Notes under the pieces: model-generated
Databases searched by the model: none
What the model saw: only the letters and a program-made list of their open reading frames with translations
Told to the model about the DNA's origin: nothing
Origin: a virus
Taxonomy: Duplodnaviria > Caudoviricetes
Strand: one strand, 5' to 3'
DNA length: 64,000 nucleotides
Virus record (IMG/VR): IMGVR_UViG_3300021135_000011
Span: 1,213-65,212 of that record
Translations under genes and position numbers: made by a program
In this document: piece by piece, positions 16,348 through 40,349 of the stretch
Numbering within the stretch: position 1 is the stretch's first letter
How the letters are laid out: each line of letters starts with the position of its first letter

Positions 16348-17205
16348 TTAATTTATTTTACATAAAGTCCAACTTTCTGGATAATAGTTGGGGTTATCAA
16401 ATTTAATTCTACATTCACCTGCAAGATTTTCTCCACAATGAACTACTTTACCATTATTAAAATTTTTCACGTACCACATTTGCCACCAAGTAAATGTAGA
16501 CGATCCGCCTATAAAATGATCACACAAAGTTCCAAGAATAAATTGTTCCATTGGATTTTGATGATAATATTTAAAATTTTCTGCATGAGTATGTGTACCA
16601 TTTGGTTCTGCAAAAAAGAAATTATCACCTTTAAATATGGTTTTAATTTCATCTATATTATCTGAAAAGAAAAGAATATTATATTCTTTCCAGTCTGGAA
16701 ATTCTATTTCTAATGCTTTTAAATACCAATCTAAGGGAATTTGATAAAAGCATCCATGATTAACAAAATCTCCTCTACGGATTCCTATACCAATTGTTTT
16801 TTTACTATTACCTAATATATGTGAATATTTTTTACAAACATCGGCTATAACAGGTGGCGTAAATTTTGCGTGTTCTTTAATATAGTCTAAACTATCTTGA
16901 AACCATAATTCAGATTGATTATTACTTCCTAAATTAATATTTAGAGTTTTGTGTTTATTTTCTTCAAAAAACTTATATAACCAGTCCATTTCTTCTCTAG
17001 AATAGTGGTTGGTTCTAAAATGAAACAACTCGTCTTCTTGAATCCCATCATCTATTTTAGGGGGGTATTTAAAGTATTGCCAAGCAAAATAATTTGGAAA
17101 AGCTAATTCGTGCCCTGTTTTATGTGCAATTCCTAAAAGTGCAAAATAGTTAAATAACCAATTACCAAGTCTAAGATGTTTACCCCAATCTTTATATAAA
17201 ATCAT
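16348..17205 (-). CDS. GT11 alpha-1,2-fucosyltransferase-like
   Basis: RLGNWLFNY, IGIRRGDFV (HxRRGD-like), FFSDN, SSTFTWW (NSTFSWW-like). Confidence 0.85.
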   Translation of the reverse strand: MILYKDWGKHLRLGNWLFNYFALLGIAHKTGHELAFPNYFAWQYFKYPPKIDDGIQEDELFHFRTNHYSREEMDWLYKFFEENKHKTLNINLGSNNQSELWFQDSLDYIKEHAKFTPPVIADVCKKYSHILGNSKKTIGIGIRRGDFVNHGCFYQIPLDWYLKALEIEFPDWKEYNILFFSDNIDEIKTIFKGDNFFFAEPNGTHTHAENFKYYHQNPMEQFILGTLCDHFIGGSSTFTWWQMWYVKNFNNGKVVHCGENLAGECRIKFDNPNYYPESWTLCKIN

Positions 17206-22932: not shown

Positions 22933-24000
22933 CTATTTTATTAAGTGTTTAAATATTTCATATCTTTGCGCAGACCAAATTTTTATATCAAATTTCTCTT
23001 TAACCCGTTCTGCTAATTCCTTACCCAAAGATACAACTTCTTTTTGATTTTTCAAACAATATTTGATATTTTTTTGCCAATTATCCCAAAATAATCCAGG
23101 AAACCCTTTTAAATTAGAATAAGGAAGTGTATCAGATACTATACAAGGCAACTCTCGTGTTGCAGCTTCTAAAATTTTTAATTCAGATTTGTATCTGTTA
23201 AATTCATTATTAACTAACGGAATTAAAGCTACATCCGCTTCATCGTAGAAAGTCATGTGTTGTTGAAGCGGTCTGGTATCTAAAATTTGATAAGATTTAG
23301 TTCTAGAAAATATTGATGCCATTTTATCCCACTCACAATGTTTATCTGGTAAAGGATTAAATCCCGCCAAAGTAAATTTTGCATTATCTGTAATATATTT
23401 TTCTCCACCTAATTTAGTAAACGTGTTCTTAAGTAGAAGTATATCATTATAATGTGTACTGCCGCCAGCATAAAGAAAATTCATTTTAGAATCAACCCTT
23501 TCAATATTATTATCTTTTGTCCAAAAAGGTGTTCCAAATGGAACTGCGTTAGGAGTAACTATGCAATTCTTATTATATTCTAAAACTCTTTTTCTAAGTA
23601 TTTCTGTGGTAACAAGAACTAAATCTGCCTCTAAAATATTTTCTATAACCCTTTCGTTCATTTTATCTTTATACCACATTTGGTATACAGGGTGTGCAGT
23701 ACTTATCTCCCAATAATCATCTAAGTCTAGAACTATTTTTACTCCTTTTGCCTTTTGCTCTTGAATAAATTCTATGGTCCGCAAAGACACATCTCTATTA
23801 TAAAATATAATATCTGGTTCAAATTCGTTTATTGTAGAAATATAATCAACATTTACTTTTTGAGATTCATCAAGTGGCGTTGTTTCAGGAAGAAACATTT
23901 TTACTTGGTCAAAATCTGTAAATGGAAAATACTCTATTGGTAGAACGCATCTGTAGAAATCACATCCGTTATTTGGTTTTACTATTACGGCTATTTTCAT
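22933..24000 (-). CDS. GT-B (GT4-like) glycosyltransferase
   Basis: GCDFYR, VLDLDDYW, ADLVLVTT, PNA, YAGGSTH, DVALIPL..NEFNRYKSELKILEA. Confidence 0.88.
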   Translation of the reverse strand: MKIAVIVKPNNGCDFYRCVLPIEYFPFTDFDQVKMFLPETTPLDESQKVNVDYISTINEFEPDIIFYNRDVSLRTIEFIQEQKAKGVKIVLDLDDYWEISTAHPVYQMWYKDKMNERVIENILEADLVLVTTEILRKRVLEYNKNCIVTPNAVPFGTPFWTKDNNIERVDSKMNFLYAGGSTHYNDILLLKNTFTKLGGEKYITDNAKFTLAGFNPLPDKHCEWDKMASIFSRTKSYQILDTRPLQQHMTFYDEADVALIPLVNNEFNRYKSELKILEAATRELPCIVSDTLPYSNLKGFPGLFWDNWQKNIKYCLKNQKEVVSLGKELAERVKEKFDIKIWSAQRYEIFKHLIK

Positions 24001-26764: not shown

Positions 26765-26777
26765 TATATCTTTTTAG

Positions 26778-26848
26778 TAGTCCTGCATGGAATCAAACCA
26801 CAATTAAAGGCTCCAAAAACCATTGTCTTATCATTAGACCACAGGACT
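26778..26848 (-). tRNA. tRNA-Gln(UUG), degenerate
   Basis: Acceptor AGTCCTG/CAGGACT, D-stem GTCT/AGAC, anticodon loop TTTTGGA (stem has a T-T mismatch), T-arm TGTGG-TTTGATT-CCATG; no encoded CCA. Confidence 0.75.
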
Positions 26849-27994: not shown

Positions 27995-28138
27995 TATTTT
28001 TTAAAAAATTTTATTTTGGATTTTTTGGTGTGTAGATGTGTATGATATAGCTCACCCATACAACGCACCGCCTTAGATATATATGGGGAAGTACCCCCGT
28101 ATCAATTTCATTTTTCACCAAATCAAATACGTACTATT

Positions 28139-28642
28139 ATGGTAACGACTGATGTTCAATTAAAAGTAAAGACCGTTACATTGACTAACGGCACCACGAG
28201 AAATAATCTCGTAGGATTTGTTCTCGGCAGAAAGGCATATGTGCCTGATTGTAATTCTGTTGCTGAATTCATTGCAGACGTGAATGCAGGTCGTCGTGAT
28301 CTCACAGGCATCTCTGAAGGTAAGGAAGTGTCCAATTGGACTAATCCTAAGACTGGATTGGTTGAACCATTTGTTGGTACGTCTTCATGCGTTTGGGGCA
28401 CAACAAGTCCTGTTCAGACTGCGGCACAGGCTCTGGAGTACCAAAAGAAAATGGACGCTCTATTAGCCCGTAAAGAGGGTCGTGATACATCTGCGCCTGT
28501 TGTGGATTATGTTCAGGCTGATCTGCAAGCTGTAACTGCACGTAGGGAAGCTATTCGTGCTAAATTGGCTCAAGCGGCTGAATTAGAGGCTCAAAAGCAA
28601 TTAGCTGCGGCTGGTGCTAATACTGAACCTGTATTGCCTTAG
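28139..28642 (+). CDS. First plus-strand gene; Ala-rich hypothetical protein
   Basis: 167 aa, visibly higher GC than neighbours. Confidence 0.75.
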   Translation: MVTTDVQLKVKTVTLTNGTTRNNLVGFVLGRKAYVPDCNSVAEFIADVNAGRRDLTGISEGKEVSNWTNPKTGLVEPFVGTSSCVWGTTSPVQTAAQALEYQKKMDALLARKEGRDTSAPVVDYVQADLQAVTARREAIRAKLAQAAELEAQKQLAAAGANTEPVLP

Positions 28643-29028
28643 TACTTAAATTACTCTCATTGACTGGACACATGATACTTGAACGTATTGTGTGTCCTTG
28701 TTAATGGGTTAAGTCTTGAGTAAGGGTGAATGCAATTTGTTGTAAGTCGTATGTAATCTAATCATTATATGTGATGGTATCGAATGCATTATCTCATCTA
28801 CTCGAATGTGAACTCGTGGAAGCTCTACTCATGTTTAGGGTTCACAATTTGTCGAAGATATGAGACACAATTGTAATGGGTGGGTGGGAAATATCATACA
28901 TCCTTCCAAGTTCTACCATTACGGCAATCCCAAATAGTAGAGAAATGAACACCGTATAAGGAGTTTTCTATTGTATAGCTAGTATAGATTTAATTATCTA
29001 AGCATACTATTCTATTTTAGTTAAGTGC
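28642..29028 (+). ncRNA. Putative ~390-nt multi-hairpin RNA
   Basis: ggacacatgatac/gtattgtgtgtcc (13 bp, 2 G-U), ctcattgac/gttaatggg, tgtgaactc/gggttcaca, gtaatgg/ccattac; ends gtacttaa/ttaagtgc. Confidence 0.55.
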
Positions 29029-29040
29029 AATTCTAATTTA

Positions 29041-29313
29041 TTACATTGTAGTCTTAGGTATGAATTGTAAGTTGCAATTGTATTCCAATACATTAGCAAT
29101 TTCTATTATAAGACCTAATTGCAATTGCATTGGATTATTCAATAATAGATTCAATTGCTTTCTACTCATCTTTAATCTCTTTGCTAATTGCACTTGAGTA
29201 TATTTTTTAGACTTAATTAGTTCTTTTAAGTCAAATGTAACTTCTGTAGGGATAGAAAGTAATAACTTAGATTGCATTGTGTAACATTTTTTAGTACAAT
29301 ATAATATAAACAA
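29041..29313 (-). CDS. XRE-family HTH regulator (start probably MQSK)
   Basis: YTQVQLAKRLKMSRKQLNLLLN; promoter TTTG-N20-TATATTAT at 29332-29301. Confidence 0.8.
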   Translation of the reverse strand: MFILYCTKKCYTMQSKLLLSIPTEVTFDLKELIKSKKYTQVQLAKRLKMSRKQLNLLLNNPMQLQLGLIIEIANVLEYNCNLQFIPKTTM

Positions 29314-29501
29314 TTAGTTTTAATTAAACAAATTGGCATTTTAATTAAGGTTTTATATTAATTTATATAAGAATATGAGGGGAAATTGGGTATTAATCCT
29401 TTTATTTATGTAGTCACTTAACTACAAATCACCTATTTAAAAATAAAAAAATTCGGACGAATATGGGTAAATAATTTAATTCACGCCTAAATCTATTAAA
29501 A

Positions 29502-29774
29502 ATGGATAGAAGATTTGATGATACAAATGAAAGATTAATTCTTAATTGTATTAAAGAGTATTATCCTTTAGAAGTATATACAGATAGTCTTATGATAAGA
29601 TTTGTTTATTCTAAGGTATTTAGTAAACAGATATTATTTAATTGTTTGAATAAGCTTTTAGATAAGAATTGCATTTTGCAAAATAAAAAAGGCAAATATT
29701 TATTTCATAAAGGATTAGATAAATTTGAATTAATTAGTTCTTATTGTAATAAATGTATTTATTCTATTAGATAG
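29502..29774 (+). CDS. Hypothetical (wHTH-like) protein
   Basis: ORF track; LFNCLNKLLDKNCI...GKY. Confidence 0.5.
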   Translation: MDRRFDDTNERLILNCIKEYYPLEVYTDSLMIRFVYSKVFSKQILFNCLNKLLDKNCILQNKKGKYLFHKGLDKFELISSYCNKCIYSIR

Positions 29775-29824
29775 ATTTATTATAACAATTGCACACCAAA
29801 AAATAAAAAAATTTAAGTCTAAAA

Positions 29825-29982
29825 GTAATAGATAGCAGTAGGATCTAGTAATAATACATAAAAAGAGCCATGAGACGAATCCCAATAATGCCGAGGGTAG
29901 AGGCAAGTGTTATTACTATTACAATAAGATTTTCCAATAAACAACTATGTATGGGTAAGAGTTGTATCTTATTATCTATTAT
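29825..29982 (+). ncRNA. Putative structured RNA
   Basis: Closing gtaatagata/tatctattat; inner tagtaataatac/gtgttattacta, aataagat/atcttatt, acaact/agttgt. Confidence 0.55.
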
Positions 29983-30008
29983 GAATTGCACATTTATTTT
30001 TAAAAATG

Positions 30009-30396
30009 CATCCTTTGGTATGAAGGCTGGTAATAATAAACAAGCATATCACCCTCACCCAAAGGATGATATGCTATTGTTCATTACCAATTATTATCCT
30101 CAGTATAAGTTAGTTTTGGCTGTTAGTGAGCAACAAGCAGTAAGACTCTGCTAACATTTAAAATGCATTTCGACTTATATGGAGTCTTTAGGGGTGATTT
30201 CTAAAGGCATACAAGTCTGATTACGTCAATCTTACAGGATTGTGGCGATATGCCTGAGTACTCAATACAAAAGGCAATTAGATGAGAGATATGGACATAA
30301 AAAAGCCCATTGATTGGATGTAGGAGCATCTTCTCAACAGGCTAGATATAAGTGTTTATGCTAATATCTCAAAAGTTATGATCAGTTGCTCCTACA
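30009..30396 (+). ncRNA. Series of stem-loops (one or several RNAs)
   Basis: catcctttgg/ccaaaggatg (30009-30068), ttgttcatta/tagtgagcaa (30077-30133), tgtaggagca/tgctcctaca (30319-30396). Confidence 0.5.
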
Positions 30397-30452
30397 ACTA
30401 TAATACAATATAAACAAAGTATTTGAATCTACCAAATGGTAGAAATCTAAAG

Positions 30453-30484
30453 CAAAGATACGTAAGTTTATTTAATTAACCAAA
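30453..30484 (-). promoter_or_regulatory. Bacteroidota-type promoter TTTG-N20-TATCTTTG (antisense orientation)
   Basis: Exact consensus; no minus-strand ORF of 60 aa or more until 29313. Confidence 0.7.
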
Positions 30485-30492
30485 TTTATTTT

Positions 30493-30651
30493 AAATAATA
30501 AAGGCTAAATATAAAAATATCGTGGATAGTATGAAACGGTATAATTAGAATAGAATAGTTGTAAAAATGCATAGCCCGGAAAAACGGTTGTTAAGGTTTG
30601 TGCTATACCTAAATCGTCTATTAATTCTAATTTGTTTAGTCTTTATTATTT
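30493..30651 (+). ncRNA. Putative structured RNA
   Basis: 19-bp closing stem aaataataaaggctaaata/tgtttagtctttattattt (2 G-U); inner aattagaat/attctaatt. Confidence 0.6.
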
Positions 30652-30716
30652 ATAATTAGTTGCATGCCTAAAAATATTTATATTACATTTATTCATTATA
30701 TTAAAAACTCAAACAA

Positions 30717-30929
30717 ATGAAAAGTATAATCACAATATCAAATCTGGATAAAAACCAATTTTTCTTTACAACAGATCATTGTCAGCCACATAATTTAGGC
30801 GATGCATGGGTTAGTTGTACTACGTCCAATACTACAAGAGAAATAGTAAAAAATCAGGAAGAAAATGCAATTAATGAATGGACTAGATGTATTGAAATAC
30901 CTAATCCACAACCAGAATATCAGGCTTAA
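30717..30929 (+). CDS. Hypothetical protein
   Basis: AAAACTCAAACAA leader then ATG. Confidence 0.6.
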   Translation: MKSIITISNLDKNQFFFTTDHCQPHNLGDAWVSCTTSNTTREIVKNQEENAINEWTRCIEIPNPQPEYQA

Positions 30930-31300
30930 TAATTAATTGTGTCTTAAAAATTGAAAATTATTATTTAATCCTATTATAAAAATTCAAACAAATGCAAACA
31001 AAAGAAATAATAATAAATAAAGAATTAGCTTTAAAAGTCAAAGAAACAGTTTCTCATGGCTTATGTAAGGGAAAATTTTCAATTCATAAATCATAAATTA
31101 ACTAATATGAAAAACAAACTATTATTCTGGATCTATATAACAGCTATTTTATGTTTAGCTGGTTGTATACAAAATTATTAAATATACTAGGATCGTTAGT
31201 TAACATTACATCGAAATGAATTAGATATGTAGCAACCTCTCAAAGAAGTTCATGGACTATATATTATTTATAATATTATTAACTATTAAAACTTATTAAC

Positions 31301-31498
31301 ATGTTTTTTAACTTATTTGAAATAAAGATAATAAAGAAAGTCAAAAGAAAAAAGATTAGTAATGCAAAAGTAAAAAATAATACGTGCCCAAATTGTGGTA
31401 ATAGGTTAATAAGAAGTAACACAGATGATTTTAGTGATCCTTGTGATGATTTAGATTGTGATAACTGTGGATTTCATACTGTTGAATTTGTTGCTTAA
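31301..31498 (+). CDS. Zn-ribbon protein
   Basis: CPNCG...CDNCGF. Confidence 0.65.
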   Translation: MFFNLFEIKIIKKVKRKKISNAKVKNNTCPNCGNRLIRSNTDDFSDPCDDLDCDNCGFHTVEFVA

Positions 31499-31612
31499 TT
31501 GCACATCAATTTTATAATTTTTATCCGAAATGGTCGTTATGAAACGCAAGTTTCTTATACTGTTTCTGAGAGAATTTCGTTTGTTTAATTGCCTAGTTAT
31601 TAAAATTTATTA

Positions 31613-31763
31613 ATATAAATAATGTCTTAGGTAAAGGTGATGTGTAATATTATTATATTCTTTTGCACTGTAAACGCAAAAATTGTAGAAATACATATAT
31701 AATATATTGCAATTTTGGGGCCGCAATCCGCAAGTTTACTTTTATCTAAGATCTTATTTATAT
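31613..31763 (+). ncRNA. Putative structured RNA
   Basis: Closing atataaataa/ttatttatat plus tcttaggtaaaggt/acttttatctaaga (G-U pairs). Confidence 0.6.
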
Positions 31764-31813
31764 ATTATTGCGTTTTTAAGAAAATTTTTTAATCTATTAT
31801 TAAATATTATTAT

Positions 31814-31990
31814 ATGTATATTCACAATGCAGGAAAATTTCGGTTAAAAGGTAATAATATATATTTTATGCTATTTGGATTAATACCTGTTTATTTAGGT
31901 TATATATCTGGAGCAAAATATAGTGATAGAGAATTAATAAATGGCGCAATATCTAAAGAATTTTATGATATTGTAAGTAAATTTAAATAA
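31814..31990 (+). CDS. Micro-ORF (58 aa)
   Basis: MYIHNAGKFRLKGNNIYFMLFGLIPVYLGY...; below the track cutoff. Confidence 0.45.
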   Translation: MYIHNAGKFRLKGNNIYFMLFGLIPVYLGYISGAKYSDRELINGAISKEFYDIVSKFK

Positions 31991-32184
31991 TTGCCTTATT
32001 TAGGCTTTAACTAATAAAAATTAATAATATGGAAAGATATAGATTTATTGGTACAGTATCATATGATAATACATATATTTGTGATATTTATTGGGATAGA
32101 TTTGATTTATGTAAAGTTTATAGTATCGGTTATCTGTAATTAATTGCATTTATAAAAATATTTTTAACTCAAAAACTTAAAAAC

Positions 32185-32463
32185 ATGCGTACGAAAGTAG
32201 AAGTAATCGAAGTAGATGGAGAAGGATTAGAATCACTTCTCAACAAAAATGTAATGATAATGTGTTTTAATTATTTCTATACAGGTAAACTTGTAGGAGT
32301 AAATGATACATTTATTAAATTAGAAAATCCCCATATTGTCTATGAAACAGGTGCATTTTCTGATAAAAAATTCAAGGACGCACAAAAAATATCTGATAAT
32401 CCACACTACATTCAGATATCAGCAATAGAATCATATTGTGAATCAACAAAAACTTTGATATGA
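32185..32463 (+). CDS. Sm/LSm-like fold protein
   Basis: LESLLNKNVMIMC..YFYTGKLVGVNDTFIKLEN (Sm1-like) and HYIQISAIES (Sm2-like). Confidence 0.65.
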   Translation: MRTKVEVIEVDGEGLESLLNKNVMIMCFNYFYTGKLVGVNDTFIKLENPHIVYETGAFSDKKFKDAQKISDNPHYIQISAIESYCESTKTLI

Positions 32464-32630
32464 GCCTAAGACCACAATCTCGATTAAATAAAGTTTATAG
32501 GTCAGGGTCAGGGTCAGGGTCATGGTCAAGGTCATGGTCAGGGTCAAGGTCATGGTCAAGGTCAGGGTCAGGGTCATGGTCAAGGTCAAGGTCAAGGTCA
32601 GGGTCAGGGTCATGGTCAGGGTCAGTGTAA
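32460..32630 (+). CDS. 56-aa RS/GS/WS dipeptide-repeat peptide
   Basis: ATGA overlap with the Sm-like stop; MSLRPQSRLNKVY-RSGSGSGSWSRSWSGSRSWSRSGSGSWSRSRSRSGSGSWSGS-V*. Confidence 0.7.
   Translation: MSLRPQSRLNKVYRSGSGSGSWSRSWSGSRSWSRSGSGSWSRSRSRSGSGSWSGSV
32499..32624 (+). repeat. Tandem hexamer [A/G/T]GGTCA x21
   Basis: 21 contiguous units; only the first base varies (7 A, 9 G, 5 T). Confidence 0.98.
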
Positions 32631-32635
32631 TATAC

Positions 32636-32769
32636 TAAACTAATTCAAATAGGATAGACTGCAGCGAAGAGTTTTAACCTCATTTATGATATCCGTAGAA
32701 AGATTAGAAGGTAAGTCAATGTTTATGTATAAAGATAGATATACTATTACAACTCTTTCAATTAGTTTA
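32636..32769 (+). ncRNA. Putative structured RNA
   Basis: taaactaatt/aattagttta closing stem, gaagagtt/aactcttt inner stem. Confidence 0.4.
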
Positions 32770-32801
32770 AATTGCATGACTCAAAAAAATTATTATTGTT
32801 T

Positions 32802-32898
32802 AAGATCTTTAGTAGGTAGACAGGTAAATTGTAAGACTTGGAAATAAACTATATCTACAACAAGAAATTTATTTCTTTATCTATCTACTAAAGATCTT
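32802..32898 (+). ncRNA. Putative structured RNA
   Basis: 19-bp stem aagatctttagtaggtaga/tctatctactaaagatctt (1 G-U), 59-nt interior. Confidence 0.6.
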
Positions 32899-33100
32899 TT
32901 ACTAAAACAACAAAATTATGAAAACAAAAACTAAACAAATAAGATTTCTATCTATATTAACTATAGGTAGATTTGAAGACGGTGATATTCTTTTAAATAA
33001 ATCTAGAACTAATTGTGTTATGTTTACTCTTTTTGGTTTAGATGTTTATTTGAATTAAAATGCACGACAATTTTGCAAAAATATTAAATAAAAATTCAAT

Positions 33101-33340
33101 ATGAATCAACAGGAAAAGCAAAAAACATTACAAAAACTCTACGATATGACTTTTGTACCAAAAGAATGGGTAGAATTTAATGGAGATTATAAAAAATGCA
33201 TGCAAGATATTAGACTCAAAGATGGTACAGAAATAGAAGAATGTTGGCCTAATGCTGGAAAATTTAATGTTTTTTCTATTAAACATAAACCAATACCTAT
33301 TTCTGAAGTTACCCATGTAAAAGCACATAAAGGATGGTAA
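33101..33340 (+). CDS. Hypothetical protein
   Basis: DIRLKDGTEIEECWPNAGKF. Confidence 0.65.
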   Translation: MNQQEKQKTLQKLYDMTFVPKEWVEFNGDYKKCMQDIRLKDGTEIEECWPNAGKFNVFSIKHKPIPISEVTHVKAHKGW

Positions 33341-33353
33341 ACAAATTAAAAAC

Positions 33354-33431
33354 TAAATAGGCAGAGAGAAAGATAATAGTAATCTATATACAGGCAGGAC
33401 TTAAGTTGTTTGTATTATCTCTGTCTATTTG
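33354..33431 (+). ncRNA. Putative structured RNA/processing hairpin
   Basis: taaataggcagaga/tctctgtctatttg (14 bp, 2 G-U). Confidence 0.5.
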
Positions 33432-33783
33432 ATTAAATTGTAAAAAATATTTTTTAATCAATTAAAAACTCAAATTTATGGTAACAACAATTGTATTTGG
33501 TATTGCATTAATATATTCTATAATGTATATACAGCTATTTGTAATGACAATATATGCAAAAAGCAAATTAGAAAATATAGACCTCGCAATATGTCTTTTA
33601 AGTTGTATTTTATGGTCTTGGTTATGGTATTTATGTCATTAAAACTCAAAACTTATGAAAAATAGAATAGCAAATAATTTTGAAAATAGTCAAAATACAT
33701 ATGGTAATGGTAATGGTTATTCACTATTAATTAGAATCCGACTATTTCCATAGTTGGATTATTTTTAAAATAAATGCAAAATT

Positions 33784-33993
33784 ATGCATAAAATATTAAA
33801 AAAATTTGCTATATGGCCCACGCAAGTTACAATAAGTTGGGATAAATATAAATTCACTTGGATATTTCTTAAAACATATTATGTAATAGATAATGTAAGA
33901 TTTAGATGGCGCAAAGATGCATTAGAATTTTCTACAAGATTTTTAAAAGATGAATTGCAAAAAGAAATAAAAGAATTAAAAGAAAAAATATGA
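33784..33993 (+). CDS. Hypothetical protein
   Basis: KKFAIWP...WIFLKTY. Confidence 0.55.
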   Translation: MHKILKKFAIWPTQVTISWDKYKFTWIFLKTYYVIDNVRFRWRKDALEFSTRFLKDELQKEIKELKEKI

Positions 33994-34186
33994 AAAAAGA
34001 ACATTTTACACCGTTATTCACGGCTATAATATTATACTTAGTTTGGTTTGCATTTTTTGGATTATGTGTGCATTTACCAATTAGTATAGTATTAGTACCT
34101 TGGATAATAGGATTAGTAAGTTATATTATATTGAAAAGATTAAAATTTTTTATTTAACAATTAACAACAAACAAAACACAAACAAA

Positions 34187-34762
34187 ATGAAAAAGTACCT
34201 ATTAATTGCAATTAGTTTATTATCTCTTACAAGTTGTGAGTATGATAATCATCCGAGAAATACATCTGCAATAGATGAACAAGCACACACGGAATTAAAT
34301 CAACGCGATTTAAACCAAAAACAACCTGCACCTACAATTACATGGAGCCTTGAAAGAGATAATCTCATTAAAAGGTTTAAACTGCAAAATGATCGTGCAG
34401 TAATGTTTTATATGTATATATTCATAGAAGGACAAGGGCAACCAATTGGTTATTATCAGATAAATAAAGTATCTTCTGTAAATAGCCAACTTACAAATAC
34501 ACAACAAGTTGTACCTTTTCACATGTATGGTGGTGGGTATACTTATGATATTCTACCAAGTCCCGCAGAAGATGGTTCTTATGGTACAAATGGTGATGGT
34601 ATGTTTGGATTTACACCTGATGACATCTATATAGAAACAGATATGCATTATATTACAAGCACAATCCCACTTACATTTGAGAAACCTGTTAATTGTATAG
34701 CAATAATTACAACAGAACAAGCACGAAAAGCATTAGAAATTTCTAAAAAAGCAATGCAATAA
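34187..34762 (+). CDS. Lipoprotein
   Basis: MKKYLLIAISLLSLTSC lipobox; SLERDNL, KVSSVNSQLT, PAEDGSYGTN. Confidence 0.8.
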   Translation: MKKYLLIAISLLSLTSCEYDNHPRNTSAIDEQAHTELNQRDLNQKQPAPTITWSLERDNLIKRFKLQNDRAVMFYMYIFIEGQGQPIGYYQINKVSSVNSQLTNTQQVVPFHMYGGGYTYDILPSPAEDGSYGTNGDGMFGFTPDDIYIETDMHYITSTIPLTFEKPVNCIAIITTEQARKALEISKKAMQ

Positions 34763-34764
34763 TT

Positions 34765-35151
34765 ATGAAAACATTTGGAATAATAGTATTATGCTTATTA
34801 GGTGTAGTTGCCTTAAGTATTTTTGGGTTTATGGGTACAACCTGTAATAATGCACAAAATCAAGTGCAAGACCATGTAGTAAATAATTCATTTAACAGTT
34901 ATGAAGAGTTTCAAGAGATATATAACACTTGTCAACAAGTTAATGATGATCTTGGAACTATAAAAGATGCGAATGAAAATGACAAAATGTTTGCTCAATT
35001 TTCAAAAACTTCTCAGCAAACCGCATTAAAAAAGAAAATGAATCGTTGGATAGAAGAATATAATGCAAAATCTAAAATGTGGAATAGAAGCATGTGGAAA
35101 TCAAATACATTACCATATCAACTATCTGCAAAAGATTTTAGTAATTACTAA
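34765..35151 (+). CDS. Membrane-anchored partner of the lipoprotein
   Basis: N-terminal TM; IEEYNAKSKMWNR. Confidence 0.7.
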   Translation: MKTFGIIVLCLLGVVALSIFGFMGTTCNNAQNQVQDHVVNNSFNSYEEFQEIYNTCQQVNDDLGTIKDANENDKMFAQFSKTSQQTALKKKMNRWIEEYNAKSKMWNRSMWKSNTLPYQLSAKDFSNY

Positions 35152-35170
35152 TTAAAAATTGTGCATAATA

Positions 35171-35270
35171 ATAAAATAGCAGAGAATGTGTATAAAACAA
35201 GAAACTTGCTCAGTCTAAGGATTAGAAATCTAAGAACGCAGTCGTATTAAGCACTTCTCTACTATTTTAT
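35171..35270 (+). ncRNA. Putative structured RNA
   Basis: ataaaatag-c-agagaa/ttctct-a-ctattttat closing stem. Confidence 0.5.
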
Positions 35271-35438
35271 CTATTAGCTCTGTAAAAAGGGTTAGGCTGT
35301 TATAATCTGCATAAACATTGTTCACCAATTTTGGGTATAATACAATGTGAGAAGATGTGATTTCTATAGGGTAAATGCAGACTAATATAGAAATTGTTCA
35401 TATTATAGCAGTGCTTAAACAATTTAAAACTCAAAAAA

Positions 35439-35654
35439 ATGCAAACGCAACCAAAAATTTACATCATCGGAGGGCAAATAACAGAAATACCTCAAATTGC
35501 AGAAGCTACACAGTATCCTCAGATACAAAAACAGTTTCATCCACGCACACACCCAAATATAAAATTGCAGCAAAAAATTCAAAAGAAACTGCATAAACAG
35601 TCAAAGTTTACCAAAAAAATACACAGTTTAACAGAATTAGAAGTAAGACATTAG
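35439..35654 (+). CDS. Basic hypothetical protein
   Basis: AAAACTCAAAAAA leader before ATG. Confidence 0.55.
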   Translation: MQTQPKIYIIGGQITEIPQIAEATQYPQIQKQFHPRTHPNIKLQQKIQKKLHKQSKFTKKIHSLTELEVRH

Positions 35655-35666
35655 GATTTTTGAGTT

Positions 35667-35732
35667 CTCAGATAATAGGTGCGGTGTGTATAAGCCGTTA
35701 AATAGTATCATATATACAGCCTGTTATCTGAG
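35667..35732 (+). ncRNA. Stem-loop (RNA element or terminator)
   Basis: ctcagataatagg/cctgttatctgag (13 bp, 1 G-U), inner gtgtata/tatatac, T-run follows. Confidence 0.5.
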
Positions 35733-35782
35733 TTTTTAAAACGCAAATCTATTAAAATTTTTTAAAATTCAATCTAAATAAA

Positions 35783-36004
35783 ATGACAACACTAACAAAA
35801 TTTTCAAAAAAACGCAGTGCAATTAATAGAAGATCTATAGTTAAAACACGACTAGAAGAACAATTACTTGCAGGAACTAAACAAAAAAAGTTTTTTGTAG
35901 ACGCAGAAGGTAACTTTACCCCCGCAATAGAAATGATTCCCTTAGAAGAATTAGATAAAGTACGCATTACTAAAGAAATAGCAACCTTACAAACAAGAAT
36001 GTAA
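35783..36004 (+). CDS. Hypothetical protein
   Basis: ORF track. Confidence 0.6.
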   Translation: MTTLTKFSKKRSAINRRSIVKTRLEEQLLAGTKQKKFFVDAEGNFTPAIEMIPLEELDKVRITKEIATLQTRM

Positions 36005-40194: not shown

Positions 40195-40266
40195 GGTAGT
40201 ATAGTGTATTGCATCGCACGAATTTCTTCTAAAAATTAAGGCTTGGTTGAATTCCAAGTATTACCA
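40195..40266 (+). tRNA. tRNA-Arg(UCU), atypical T-loop
   Basis: GGTAGTA/TATTACC, D GTGT/GCAC, AATTT-CTTCTAA-AAATT, CTTGG-TTGAATT-CCAAG; no encoded CCA. Confidence 0.8.
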
Positions 40267-40349
40267 CAATTTAAACTAATTTCAGTCATGGCGACTGAGA
40301 TATCGCAAAGTCTTTATATAGTAAGAAGTATAAAGCACTACTTATAGAG

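Follow-up and report, generated by a model that had tools for sequence, protein, structure and literature searches.

We identified a conserved, self-contained accessory module of uncultured tailed phages, which consists of a predicted Sm-fold protein of ~90 to 110 amino acids (aa) and one to five downstream, usually start/stop-coupled genes for peptides with a short conserved N-terminal leader and a hypervariable low-complexity (Arg/Gly/Trp)-Ser tail. The locus described here lies in a 64,000-nucleotide (nt) stretch of DNA, hereafter called the window, that covers positions 1,213 to 65,212 of a 65-kb IMG/VR virus record (IMGVR_UViG_3300021135_000011; completeness rating, 54%). As a tentative reading, to which we give a probability of about 40%, we propose that the Sm-fold protein is a hub that docks the leaders and presents the cationic aromatic tails to RNA or DNA in the replication phase, as a split analogue of an Sm core with basic repeat tails. 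An initial annotation of the window, made from its letters alone, had described a 92-aa open reading frame (ORF) overlapping, at an ATGA, a 56-aa ORF composed of a basic leader and 21 X-Ser dipeptides (X being R, G, or W). We confirmed both ORFs, at the following positions.

32185..32463, plus strand: gene for the 92-aa Sm-fold protein (family A1), from the ORF call and the predicted fold
32460..32630, plus strand: gene for the 56-aa peptide, from the ORF call; its ATG overlaps the stop codon of the 92-aa ORF (ATGA, offset -4)
32460..32498, plus strand: leader MSLRPQSRLNKVY (13 aa, basic), from the alignment of 71 distinct leaders
32499..32624, plus strand: array of 21 NGG-TCA hexamers encoding (R/G/W)-Ser 21 times, from the codon register and Tandem Repeats Finder

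The 56-aa peptide comprises the leader, 21 X-Ser dipeptides, and a V directly followed by the stop codon, and it has a net charge of about +11. In its array, X is encoded by AGG (R, 7 times), GGG (G, 9 times), and TGG (W, 5 times), and the next codon is TCA in 21 of 21 cases. Tandem Repeats Finder reported the repeat at 32500-32625 (period 6, 21.0 copies, 89% matches, score 175), and the three-unit pattern GGTCANGGTCANGGTCA was found 19 times in the window, always within the array, against an expectation of 0.00 from 100 shuffles. The leader MSLRPQSRLNKVY belongs to a basic class, M-x-R-S-x-K-Q-K-Y/W, that is found next to A1 genes. Pfam gave only a subthreshold match of the peptide to TP2 (E 0.52), and NCBIfam gave weak low-complexity matches to the ClfA, ClfB, SdrC, and SdrD models (E 0.2 to 0.4), far under the cutoff.

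For family A1, we obtained 618 relatives at E ≤ 0.01 in a collection of 5.8 billion proteins. In a set of 1.84 billion representative proteins the family formed 506 clusters at the 50% identity level, and in IMG/VR we confirmed 346 of its loci. None of the 120 relatives listed out of the 618 carried a Pfam domain or an informative name. In GTDB genomes there were 15 loci, every one of them on a contig of a metagenome-assembled genome (MAG) and with scattered taxonomy. We assembled a set of 96 A1 loci plus the window, which gave 83 distinct sequences, 74 of them with at least 200 nt downstream of the gene, and scored as paired those with an ORF of at least eight [RGW]-Ser dipeptides directly downstream of the Sm gene. 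The initial annotation had proposed a two-gene module and had suggested looking for such an ORF in homologous loci; it was present in 68 of the 74 distinct A1 loci, with one to four peptide genes each and two to four in tandem in 12 of the 68. The peptide start lay at offset -4 to the upstream stop in 25 of the 68 loci and at -1 to +7 in 28, the offset being larger or uncertain in 15. Most of the six loci without a downstream peptide ORF have remnants, as follows.

L053: peptide cut off after the leader, MTRGLKQKYRSGS-stop
L091: shortened peptide of 23 aa; an array also lies 5' of the Sm gene
L050 and L056: degenerate copies, with a further peptide gene on the upstream side in L050
L059: array only on the upstream side of the Sm gene
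L097: degenerate sequence, on a 3.4-Mb Nitrospinales MAG contig

Eight loci (L085, L086, and L096; L219, L226, L252, L258, and L293) have between three and five peptide genes in tandem; every gene brings its own leader copy, and the repeat order differs from one to the next. Besides, arrays turn over between loci whose Sm genes are identical over the last 270 nt: the peptides are 60 and 46 aa long in L043 and L044, and 51 and 27 aa long in L045 and L046. Such hypervariability of array length and order would also be expected of a decoy or mimic, in which the peptide soaks up a host kinase, protease, glycosyltransferase, or Trp-pocket protein (for instance by mimicry of GW/WG "hook"-like Argonaute partners) and array change reflects an arms race; the occurrence of the module as a mobile, self-contained cassette in unrelated genome contexts (flanking guanine-plus-cytosine [GC] content, 0.26 to 0.61) and in accessory-gene neighborhoods would fit this as well. 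We regard it as quite unlikely, however, because slippage alone accounts for the hypervariability, the conserved Sm partner would have no obvious role, and no target is known. In addition, the PADLOC catalogue gave no defense or antidefense match at E ≤ 1 for the Sm protein, the peptide, or the protein of the sister family A2 described below.

The pairing is repeated in a second family. A scan of IMG/VR for NGGTCT arrays returned at least 80 loci; among the 80 listed, 27 had an A1 gene, and 13 had a gene for a different protein of ~110 aa (A2), with the motif RTVT..G...ASW[VI]AD[ST]GRF...EVEP, immediately upstream of a mixed R/G/W-Ser ORF. The remaining 40 were loci cut by contig ends, pure (RS)n, (GS)n, or (WS)n repeats inside other proteins, which we inspected and set aside as unrelated to the module, and a few mixed peptides with no Sm gene nearby. 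By profile alignment with hhalign, A2/A3 is distantly homologous to A1 (95.2%, E 2.6e-8 over 74 columns; 95.8%, E 7.7e-9). The AlphaFold2 model of A2/A3, with a mean predicted local distance difference test score (pLDDT) of 92.5, matched SmAP1 best (Z 9.3), and all 21 matches listed at Z ≥ 8.0 were Sm/LSm or Sm-like. In Pfam, A2 proteins stayed below the cutoffs, with no match stronger than E 0.017, and PHROGs gave no family for them at E ≤ 0.01. We confirmed 373 A2 loci in IMG/VR; 59 of the 67 distinct loci with enough downstream DNA carry one to five X-Ser peptide genes, the start offset being -4 in 24 of the 59.

The leaders next to A2 genes read MNxAxLRxGFD or MIILKANEW, and thus the leader class covaries with the Sm subfamily. 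A conserved leader, a variable core, one to five tandem paralogues, and covariation of the leader with its partner are also features of the precursors of ribosomally synthesized and posttranslationally modified peptides (RiPPs), and one could imagine that the leader is recognized via the Sm-fold protein while the Ser residues of the core are modified by a host enzyme or a distantly encoded one. This seems very improbable to us: unlike RiPP precursors, the module has no linked tailoring enzyme, with no modifying enzyme, protease, or transporter conserved within ±3 kb (no family occurs there in more than 8 of 82 loci), and its cores are simple dipeptide repeats, not diverse sequences. To our knowledge, no RiPP recognition element with an Sm fold has been described.

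Across loci, the peptides are 25 to 100 aa long with a median net charge of +10 (range, +2 to +18), and they consist of 40% S, 16% G, 14% R, and 12% W. The Sm-fold proteins have median net charges of -3 (A1) and -4 (A2). Arg/Trp-rich peptides can be membrane active, and poly-basic dipeptide repeats block ribosomes. The cationic S/G/R/W-rich composition opposite an acidic partner, the tight coupling, the multiple tandem and fast-changing paralogues, and the position among small early or accessory genes might reflect an effector with its chaperone or antidote, in which the peptide acts on membranes or blocks ribosomes or other polyanions (in host takeover, exclusion of rivals, or lysis timing) and the acidic Sm protein holds it inactive or delivers it. 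We consider this somewhat unlikely, since the peptide has neither a hydrophobic segment nor a signal sequence, any amphipathicity is diluted by the many Gly residues and by Ser at every second position, the neighborhood lacks holin, endolysin, and lysis genes, and PADLOC gave no match.

Is the peptide frame real? In an NGG-TCN array, neither the X-Ser frame nor the one after it (GGT-CNN) can hold a stop codon, and therefore openness alone proves nothing. On this ground, and because contigs from public sequencing runs end at the array, it might be suspected to be a meaningless microsatellite or an assembly artifact that is open by chance. That is hardly credible, however, as hundreds of independent contigs, taken from many different studies, show the same arrangement with a conserved leader, start, stop, and partner, and the window locus itself was recovered, with at least half of its sampled words, in at least 12 freshwater or freshwater-sediment DNA runs.

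The codons of the arrays bear on the frame more directly. The main spacer triplet after NGG was a Ser codon in all 68 arrays examined. In 60 distinct arrays, Ser was encoded by TCT (546), TCG (398), TCA (227), AGC (71), AGT (62), and TCC (39), each array using essentially one of these (median purity, 1.00). Since the TCN and AGY classes have no nucleotide in common, the conserved entity is serine, and the X-Ser frame alone keeps one meaning across the classes. The Ser codon tracks the GC content of the flanks (medians: TCA, 0.37; TCT, 0.43; TCG, 0.53; AGC, 0.52), and the Arg codon moves from AGG to CGG as flank GC rises; judged by codon usage, this is the behavior of a translated sequence. In the alignment of 71 distinct leaders, K, Q, Y, and R are conserved as amino acids with synonymous codons mixed (K, AAA 87 and AAG 29; Q, CAA 28 and CAG 9; Y, TAT 16 and TAC 11; Arg, all six). 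Beyond the end of the array, the stop came after a median of 1 codon in the X-Ser frame and of 11 and 12.5 codons in the other two, and it fell within 3 codons in 57 of 78 cases in the X-Ser frame versus 14 of 77 and 23 of 78 in the others. These comparative data show selection on the peptide reading frame and make its translation very likely.

Other products of the locus were rejected. The meaning of plus-strand frame 2 shifts with the Ser-codon class (G-H/Q, G-L, G-R, G-P, G-A, or G-V), and stops in the other plus-strand frames lie off the array end; the minus-strand ORF at 32443..32613 likewise changes its meaning with the Ser-codon class and does not have its stop at the array end. A fusion of the two ORFs by frameshifting or readthrough was ruled out because the offsets of -4, -1, 0, and +1 to +7 put the peptide in differing frames.

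In a freshwater metatranscriptome run (X21), 406 contigs showed 90 to 99% likeness to the array (32500-32625) only, none of them matching the flanks, with a summed word depth over the array of around 1400 to 1600. Array-type sequences are thus abundant in that run, as RNA or carried-over DNA. Since the contigs match the array and not the flanks, they derive from other arrays and are no proof of transcription of the window locus, and other RNA runs held ≤0.06 of the words of this locus.

We modeled the 92-aa protein with AlphaFold2 from a 28-sequence alignment. The model (mean pLDDT, 87.9; predicted template modeling score, 0.75) has an N-terminal helix (residues 14-18) and five long bent strands (22-27, 30-39, 43-54, 65-68/74-77, and 81-86). 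The protein is mildly acidic, and the residues invariant in family A1 include Y30, Y32, G34, G38, N40, Y53, T55, G56, D65, and E82. In an exhaustive VIA-align comparison with 48,161 PDB representative chains, 29 chains scored Z ≥ 8, and all 28 matches listed at Z ≥ 7.9 were Sm/LSm or Sm-like proteins. The best were 6ppv_A and 1n9r_A (Schizosaccharomyces pombe Lsm1-7 and yeast SmF; Z 10.2), followed by archaeal SmAP1 (Z 10.0) and AF-Sm2 (Z 9.8), and the top Sm/LSm matches superposed with a root mean square deviation of 1.7 to 2.5 over 65 to 67 aligned residues. LSm domains that bind proteins were also matched (2vc8_A, EDC3, Z 8.8; 7l1k_C, NatC, Z 8.6; 7bbl_D, Gemin6/7/8, Z 7.3), whereas Hfq structures scored lower against the predicted models than Sm/LSm did (Z 6.5 to 7.3). 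Foldseek against the full PDB agreed in ranking, with 4m75_K as the best match (E 7.7e-4) and only Sm/LSm or NatC Sm-like proteins at the top. Thus, according to the model, the 92-aa protein has the Sm/LSm fold, and the by-eye call of the initial annotation was right at the level of the fold.

Other comparisons gave weaker leads. In the ESM Atlas, the protein fell near LSM, Phage_Hfq, and Gemin7 clusters at 0.80 to 0.83 (Phage_Hfq, 0.80), which we take at lead level only. Its BFVD neighbors (E 6e-4 to 5e-2) include uncharacterized proteins of cultured phages (Agrobacterium phage Atu_ph07, a Rheinheimera phage, and cyanophages) and several "DUF6948" or "Sm-like domain" proteins. Against DUF6897 (PF21838) the protein reached 17.0 bits with a cutoff of 23.9 (E 0.0048), that is, below threshold; 4 of 28 family members matched this domain at E ≤ 1 (best, 7.6e-4), and a search for PF21838 within the window's own record gave no match. 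The score against the NCBIfam model MM0924_fam was 18.9 bits with a cutoff of 45 bits. From these scores, a distant kinship to the DUF6897/MM0924 family is possible. PHROGs gave nothing stronger than E 0.04, and a sequence-profile search of the PDB gave only a chance match (E 1.4).

Under the hub reading, translational coupling would provide matched amounts of Sm protein and peptide. The Sm-fold protein, which is mildly acidic and, like Sm proteins in general, probably oligomeric, would dock the leader and would chaperone and multimerize the cationic Trp-rich tails. In the replication phase of infection, these tails would attach to a polyanion, with RNA or DNA as the most likely candidates. 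Slippage would quickly alter the length of the array and the order of R, G, and W. We infer the docking of the leader from the covariation of leader class and Sm subfamily, and charge complementarity and coupled translation point in the same direction. Natural proteins with two tandem copies of the Sm domain (P0121, P0127, and P0180) are a hint, though an indirect one, that the protein forms an oligomer. A complex prediction of two Sm chains with the 56-aa peptide, run without controls, scored 0.02 against a mark of 0.32 and is evidence neither way. In its most far-reaching form, this idea would make the module a "split Sm" in phages of many hosts, in which the ring docks several leaders and maybe grips its own GG-periodic, dual-coding mRNA, the tails condense RNA or DNA into a compartment or ribonucleoprotein (RNP), and slippage serves as a tuning or arms-race device; we see this as a long shot.

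Several observations weigh against the hub reading. Within it, ring formation, Sm-peptide binding, and nucleic acid binding are proposals, and translation is deduced from sequence evolution. LSM (PF01423) did not match the 92-aa protein at E ≤ 10 or any of 28 family members at E ≤ 1, and Hfq and Phage_Hfq (PF17209 and PF23874) had no Pfam match to the protein (E ≤ 10) or among the 28 members. The uridine pocket of Sm/LSm proteins is formed by an aromatic residue or His plus Asn in loop 3 and by Arg(-Gly) in loop 5. As checked by eye on the A1 alignment and the strand limits of the model, loop 3 reads N40-D41-T42, with N40 invariant, and no conserved Arg-Gly was seen before the last strand, so that a canonical pocket is not evident. 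With neither an LSM nor an Hfq profile match, the protein may be a protein-binding LSm-type domain or something else, and it may stand closer to protein-binding LSm domains than to RNA-binding rings. Of the 10 longer representatives inspected and the 2 matches of a dedicated search for longer forms, none was an Sm-XS fusion protein, so that the "split tail" has no fused precedent in the family. Peptides also occur apart from the Sm gene: when five mixed-peptide records were searched whole for A1, the gene was found elsewhere in one and in none of the other four, and such A1-less records include a 110-kb record rated 100% complete (searched with the A1 profile only), whose 2.5-kb locus L133 has no A2 gene either.

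A further point against a purely peptide-based reading is the near-exclusive use of NGG at X, which points to a constraint beyond the amino acid sequence. In the 60 distinct arrays, X was GGG (528), TGG (377), AGG (230), or CGG (163), and only exceptionally GGA (2), GGT (2), AGA (2), or CGA (1). Thus, 1298 codons were NGG and about 100 were others, with 393 AGG plus CGG against 3 other Arg codons and 528 GGG against 4 other Gly codons. Most of the minor codons differ from NGG at the second base and retain the G at the third (ATG 17, TTG 15, GAG 11, AAG 10, and GTG 9). At X, then, the first base is free, R, G, and W all being accepted, and the synonymous third base is frozen, whereas leader Arg in the same ORFs uses six codons. 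Two explanations can be offered, and we decide for neither. TGG is the sole Trp codon, and only among NGG codons can one change at the first base turn R, G, or W into one another; homogenization by slippage and rediversification would therefore stay in NGG. Alternatively, the constraint would act at the nucleotide level, e.g., through an RNA platform for the Sm protein. An origin of the variable first base by a diversity-generating retroelement was ruled out, since the other adenines of the unit (in TCA, AGC, and AGT) are invariant and no reverse transcriptase is a conserved neighbor.

Taken to its end, the nucleotide-level explanation would make the (NGG-N3)n mRNA itself the functional element, a periodic platform that is wrapped by, or titrates, the Sm oligomer (in autoregulation or an RNP), the peptide being secondary or dual coding. 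It would account for the fixed GG of X, with a total of 7 synonymous GGA/GGT/AGA/CGA codons next to unrestricted leader Arg codons; the Sm fold is a classic RNA-binding ring, and the array RNA folds better than shuffled sequences (z -3.73). There is also a likeness to TRAP, which binds (G/U)AG repeat RNA, and to CsrA, which binds GGA-rich sponge RNAs: in each case a small oligomeric protein stands beside RNA with G-rich motifs 5 to 6 nt apart, the array having GG every 6 nt, 21 times. Those proteins have another fold, however, and the phage repeat is framed as an ORF, by a start codon and conserved leader on one side and an immediate stop on the other, with a spacer that is always a Ser codon in one frame, even across the switch from TCN to AGY. 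Besides, GGUC self-pairing is lost in the AGC and AGT arrays, residues of a uridine pocket are not evident, and NGG is explicable without any RNA function, as set out above. We therefore judge an RNA element of this kind to be unlikely.

The initial annotation had also envisaged structured RNAs flanking the module, for which we found little support. Rfam gave no family at 28000-36000, save a small nucleolar RNA match at chance level (E 0.83), and for the 470-nt spacer that follows the peptide gene the gain in folding over shuffled sequences is modest (z -2.44), although this spacer contains the following repeat.

32790-32829 and 32871-32910, spacer 3' of the peptide gene: imperfect inverted repeat of 40 nt, 75% complementary, with arms 41 nt apart

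Its core is a 19-bp perfect-looking stem, and from its sequence it could be a terminator or a regulatory hairpin. Taken together, the interpretation given in the initial annotation was partly supported; nothing that we found favored the particular functions it had put forward, namely a condensate, a kinase or defense decoy, or a beta-strand polymer.

The genomic setting places the module near replication functions. The window is from a tailed phage, with the genes for the major head protein, portal, and large terminase all on the minus strand. Its rightward block begins with small ORFs and continues with a sigma-factor-like gene, a ParB-like gene, and genes for DNA polymerase, primase/helicase, a Sak4-like annealing protein, and endonuclease VII; the Sm/peptide pair is among the small early-region ORFs, upstream of the sigma-factor-like, ParB-like, and DNA polymerase genes. 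At the DNA level, Tenacibaculum phage Gundel_1 is the only named phage with similarity to the window, through one weak match of 195 bp. No other conserved gene accompanies A1 within ±3 kb: the Sm gene is present in 82 of 82 loci, and, leaving aside its antisense shadow, the most widely shared ORF cluster occurs in 8 of the 82. For the PHROG comparison we took the 150 nearest of 299 ORFs and dropped those overlapping the module or on the opposite strand, which left 110 same-strand ORFs of at least 110 aa from 61 distinct IMG/VR A1 loci. Of these, 51 had a PHROG match, 30 in a named category and 21 in families of unknown function. The named neighbors comprised 21 of DNA, RNA, and nucleotide metabolism (helicase, polymerase, clamp loader, ligase, annealing proteins, exonucleases, HNH, replication initiators, resolvase, and dCMP deaminase), 6 others (2 DNA methyltransferases, 2 proteases, 1 phosphoesterase, and 1 lipoprotein), 2 integrases, and 1 tail-lysozyme-like protein; none of the 51 matches was to a head or lysis PHROG. 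At the A2 loci L118, L252, L255, and L131, the module adjoins a QueD-like gene (by motif reading) and a C5 DNA methyltransferase-like gene, which fits a DNA-metabolism neighborhood.

Among known systems, eukaryotic SmD1, SmD3, and LSm4 have an Sm core with a C-terminally fused RG/RGG basic repeat tail. The phage module resembles them in combining an Sm-fold core, whose best structural matches are Sm/LSm proteins, with an Arg/Gly-rich low-complexity repeat. It differs in that the tail is the product of a separate, coupled gene with strict X-Ser alternation and abundant Trp, and in that the core protein has no LSM Pfam match, no evident uridine pocket, and no fused form that we could find. The LSm domains of EDC3, Gemin6/7, and NatC Naa38 have short linear motifs or partner proteins, not RNA, as their ligands; the predicted fold matches them at Z 7.3 to 8.8, which would fit a leader-docking role, but there is no sequence relationship and no shared partner, and the biological setting is another. 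Hfq and the phage Hfq-like proteins (PF23874) offer a precedent for a small phage-encoded Sm-fold protein, although the module protein scores lower against Hfq than against Sm/LSm and has no Hfq or Phage_Hfq match in Pfam, and we know of no X-Ser peptide partner for Hfq. The RS domains of serine/arginine-rich splicing factors and the Ser-Asp regions of Clf/Sdr proteins are likewise long X-Ser repeats encoded by short tandem DNA repeats. Those repeats belong to large proteins, in which they accompany RNA recognition motifs or form stalks anchored to the cell wall, and dedicated enzymes phosphorylate or glycosylate them, whereas the phage peptide is free-standing at 25 to 100 aa and mixed in R, G, and W, with no conserved enzyme, RNA recognition motif, or kinase nearby.

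We regard the system, not the fold, as new, and by sequence the Sm-fold protein belongs to no curated family. Full-text literature searches, whose scope did not extend to subscription journals and supplements, returned no description of the module. Among 50,697 GenBank phage records, A1 and A2 each had one match, both uncultured, and no cultured phage carries the module; it is common in viral dark matter, and with no cultured carrier a bench study in a cultured phage cannot have happened. The module joins one of the oldest RNA-associated folds to gene products that annotation pipelines drop because they are short, low in complexity, and repeat encoded, and it bears an unusual evolutionary signature, with Ser fixed at the amino acid level next to a codon fixed at the nucleotide level (NGG) whose first base is free. 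Should the peptides be produced and bound in the proposed way, viruses of prokaryotes would have their own counterpart of Sm cores with basic tails, and the module would offer a tractable model of sticker-and-spacer peptides; if the RNA reading were true, it would represent a new pair of ring protein and periodic RNA.

Four further genes of the window were noted.

16348-17205, minus strand: glycosyltransferase-like gene, among structural genes
22933-24000, minus strand: glycosyltransferase-like gene, among structural genes
26777-26848, minus strand: tRNA-Gln(TTG)
40195-40267, plus strand: tRNA-Arg(TCT)

In staphylococcal adhesins, the Ser residues of the Ser-Asp repeats carry glycans; no glycosyltransferase-like gene was linked to the module within ±3 kb of A1 loci. 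AGG is the sole Arg codon of the window repeat (7 of 7), in a region of low GC, and the phage has a tRNA-Arg(TCT) gene. A UCU anticodon reads AGA and AGG by standard wobble rules, and a link between this tRNA and the use of AGG in the repeat is possible.

Two other kinds of repeat appeared in the array scan. L102 and L139 contain a small ORF that starts with MLSPWSWS and has a pure Trp-Ser repeat and a Leu/Ala-rich hydrophobic end resembling a membrane span; no Sm-fold gene was found in those loci. In L145, L166, and L167, the NGGTCT repeats lie within a protein of ~648 aa that is unrelated to the module and is conserved in the three contigs.

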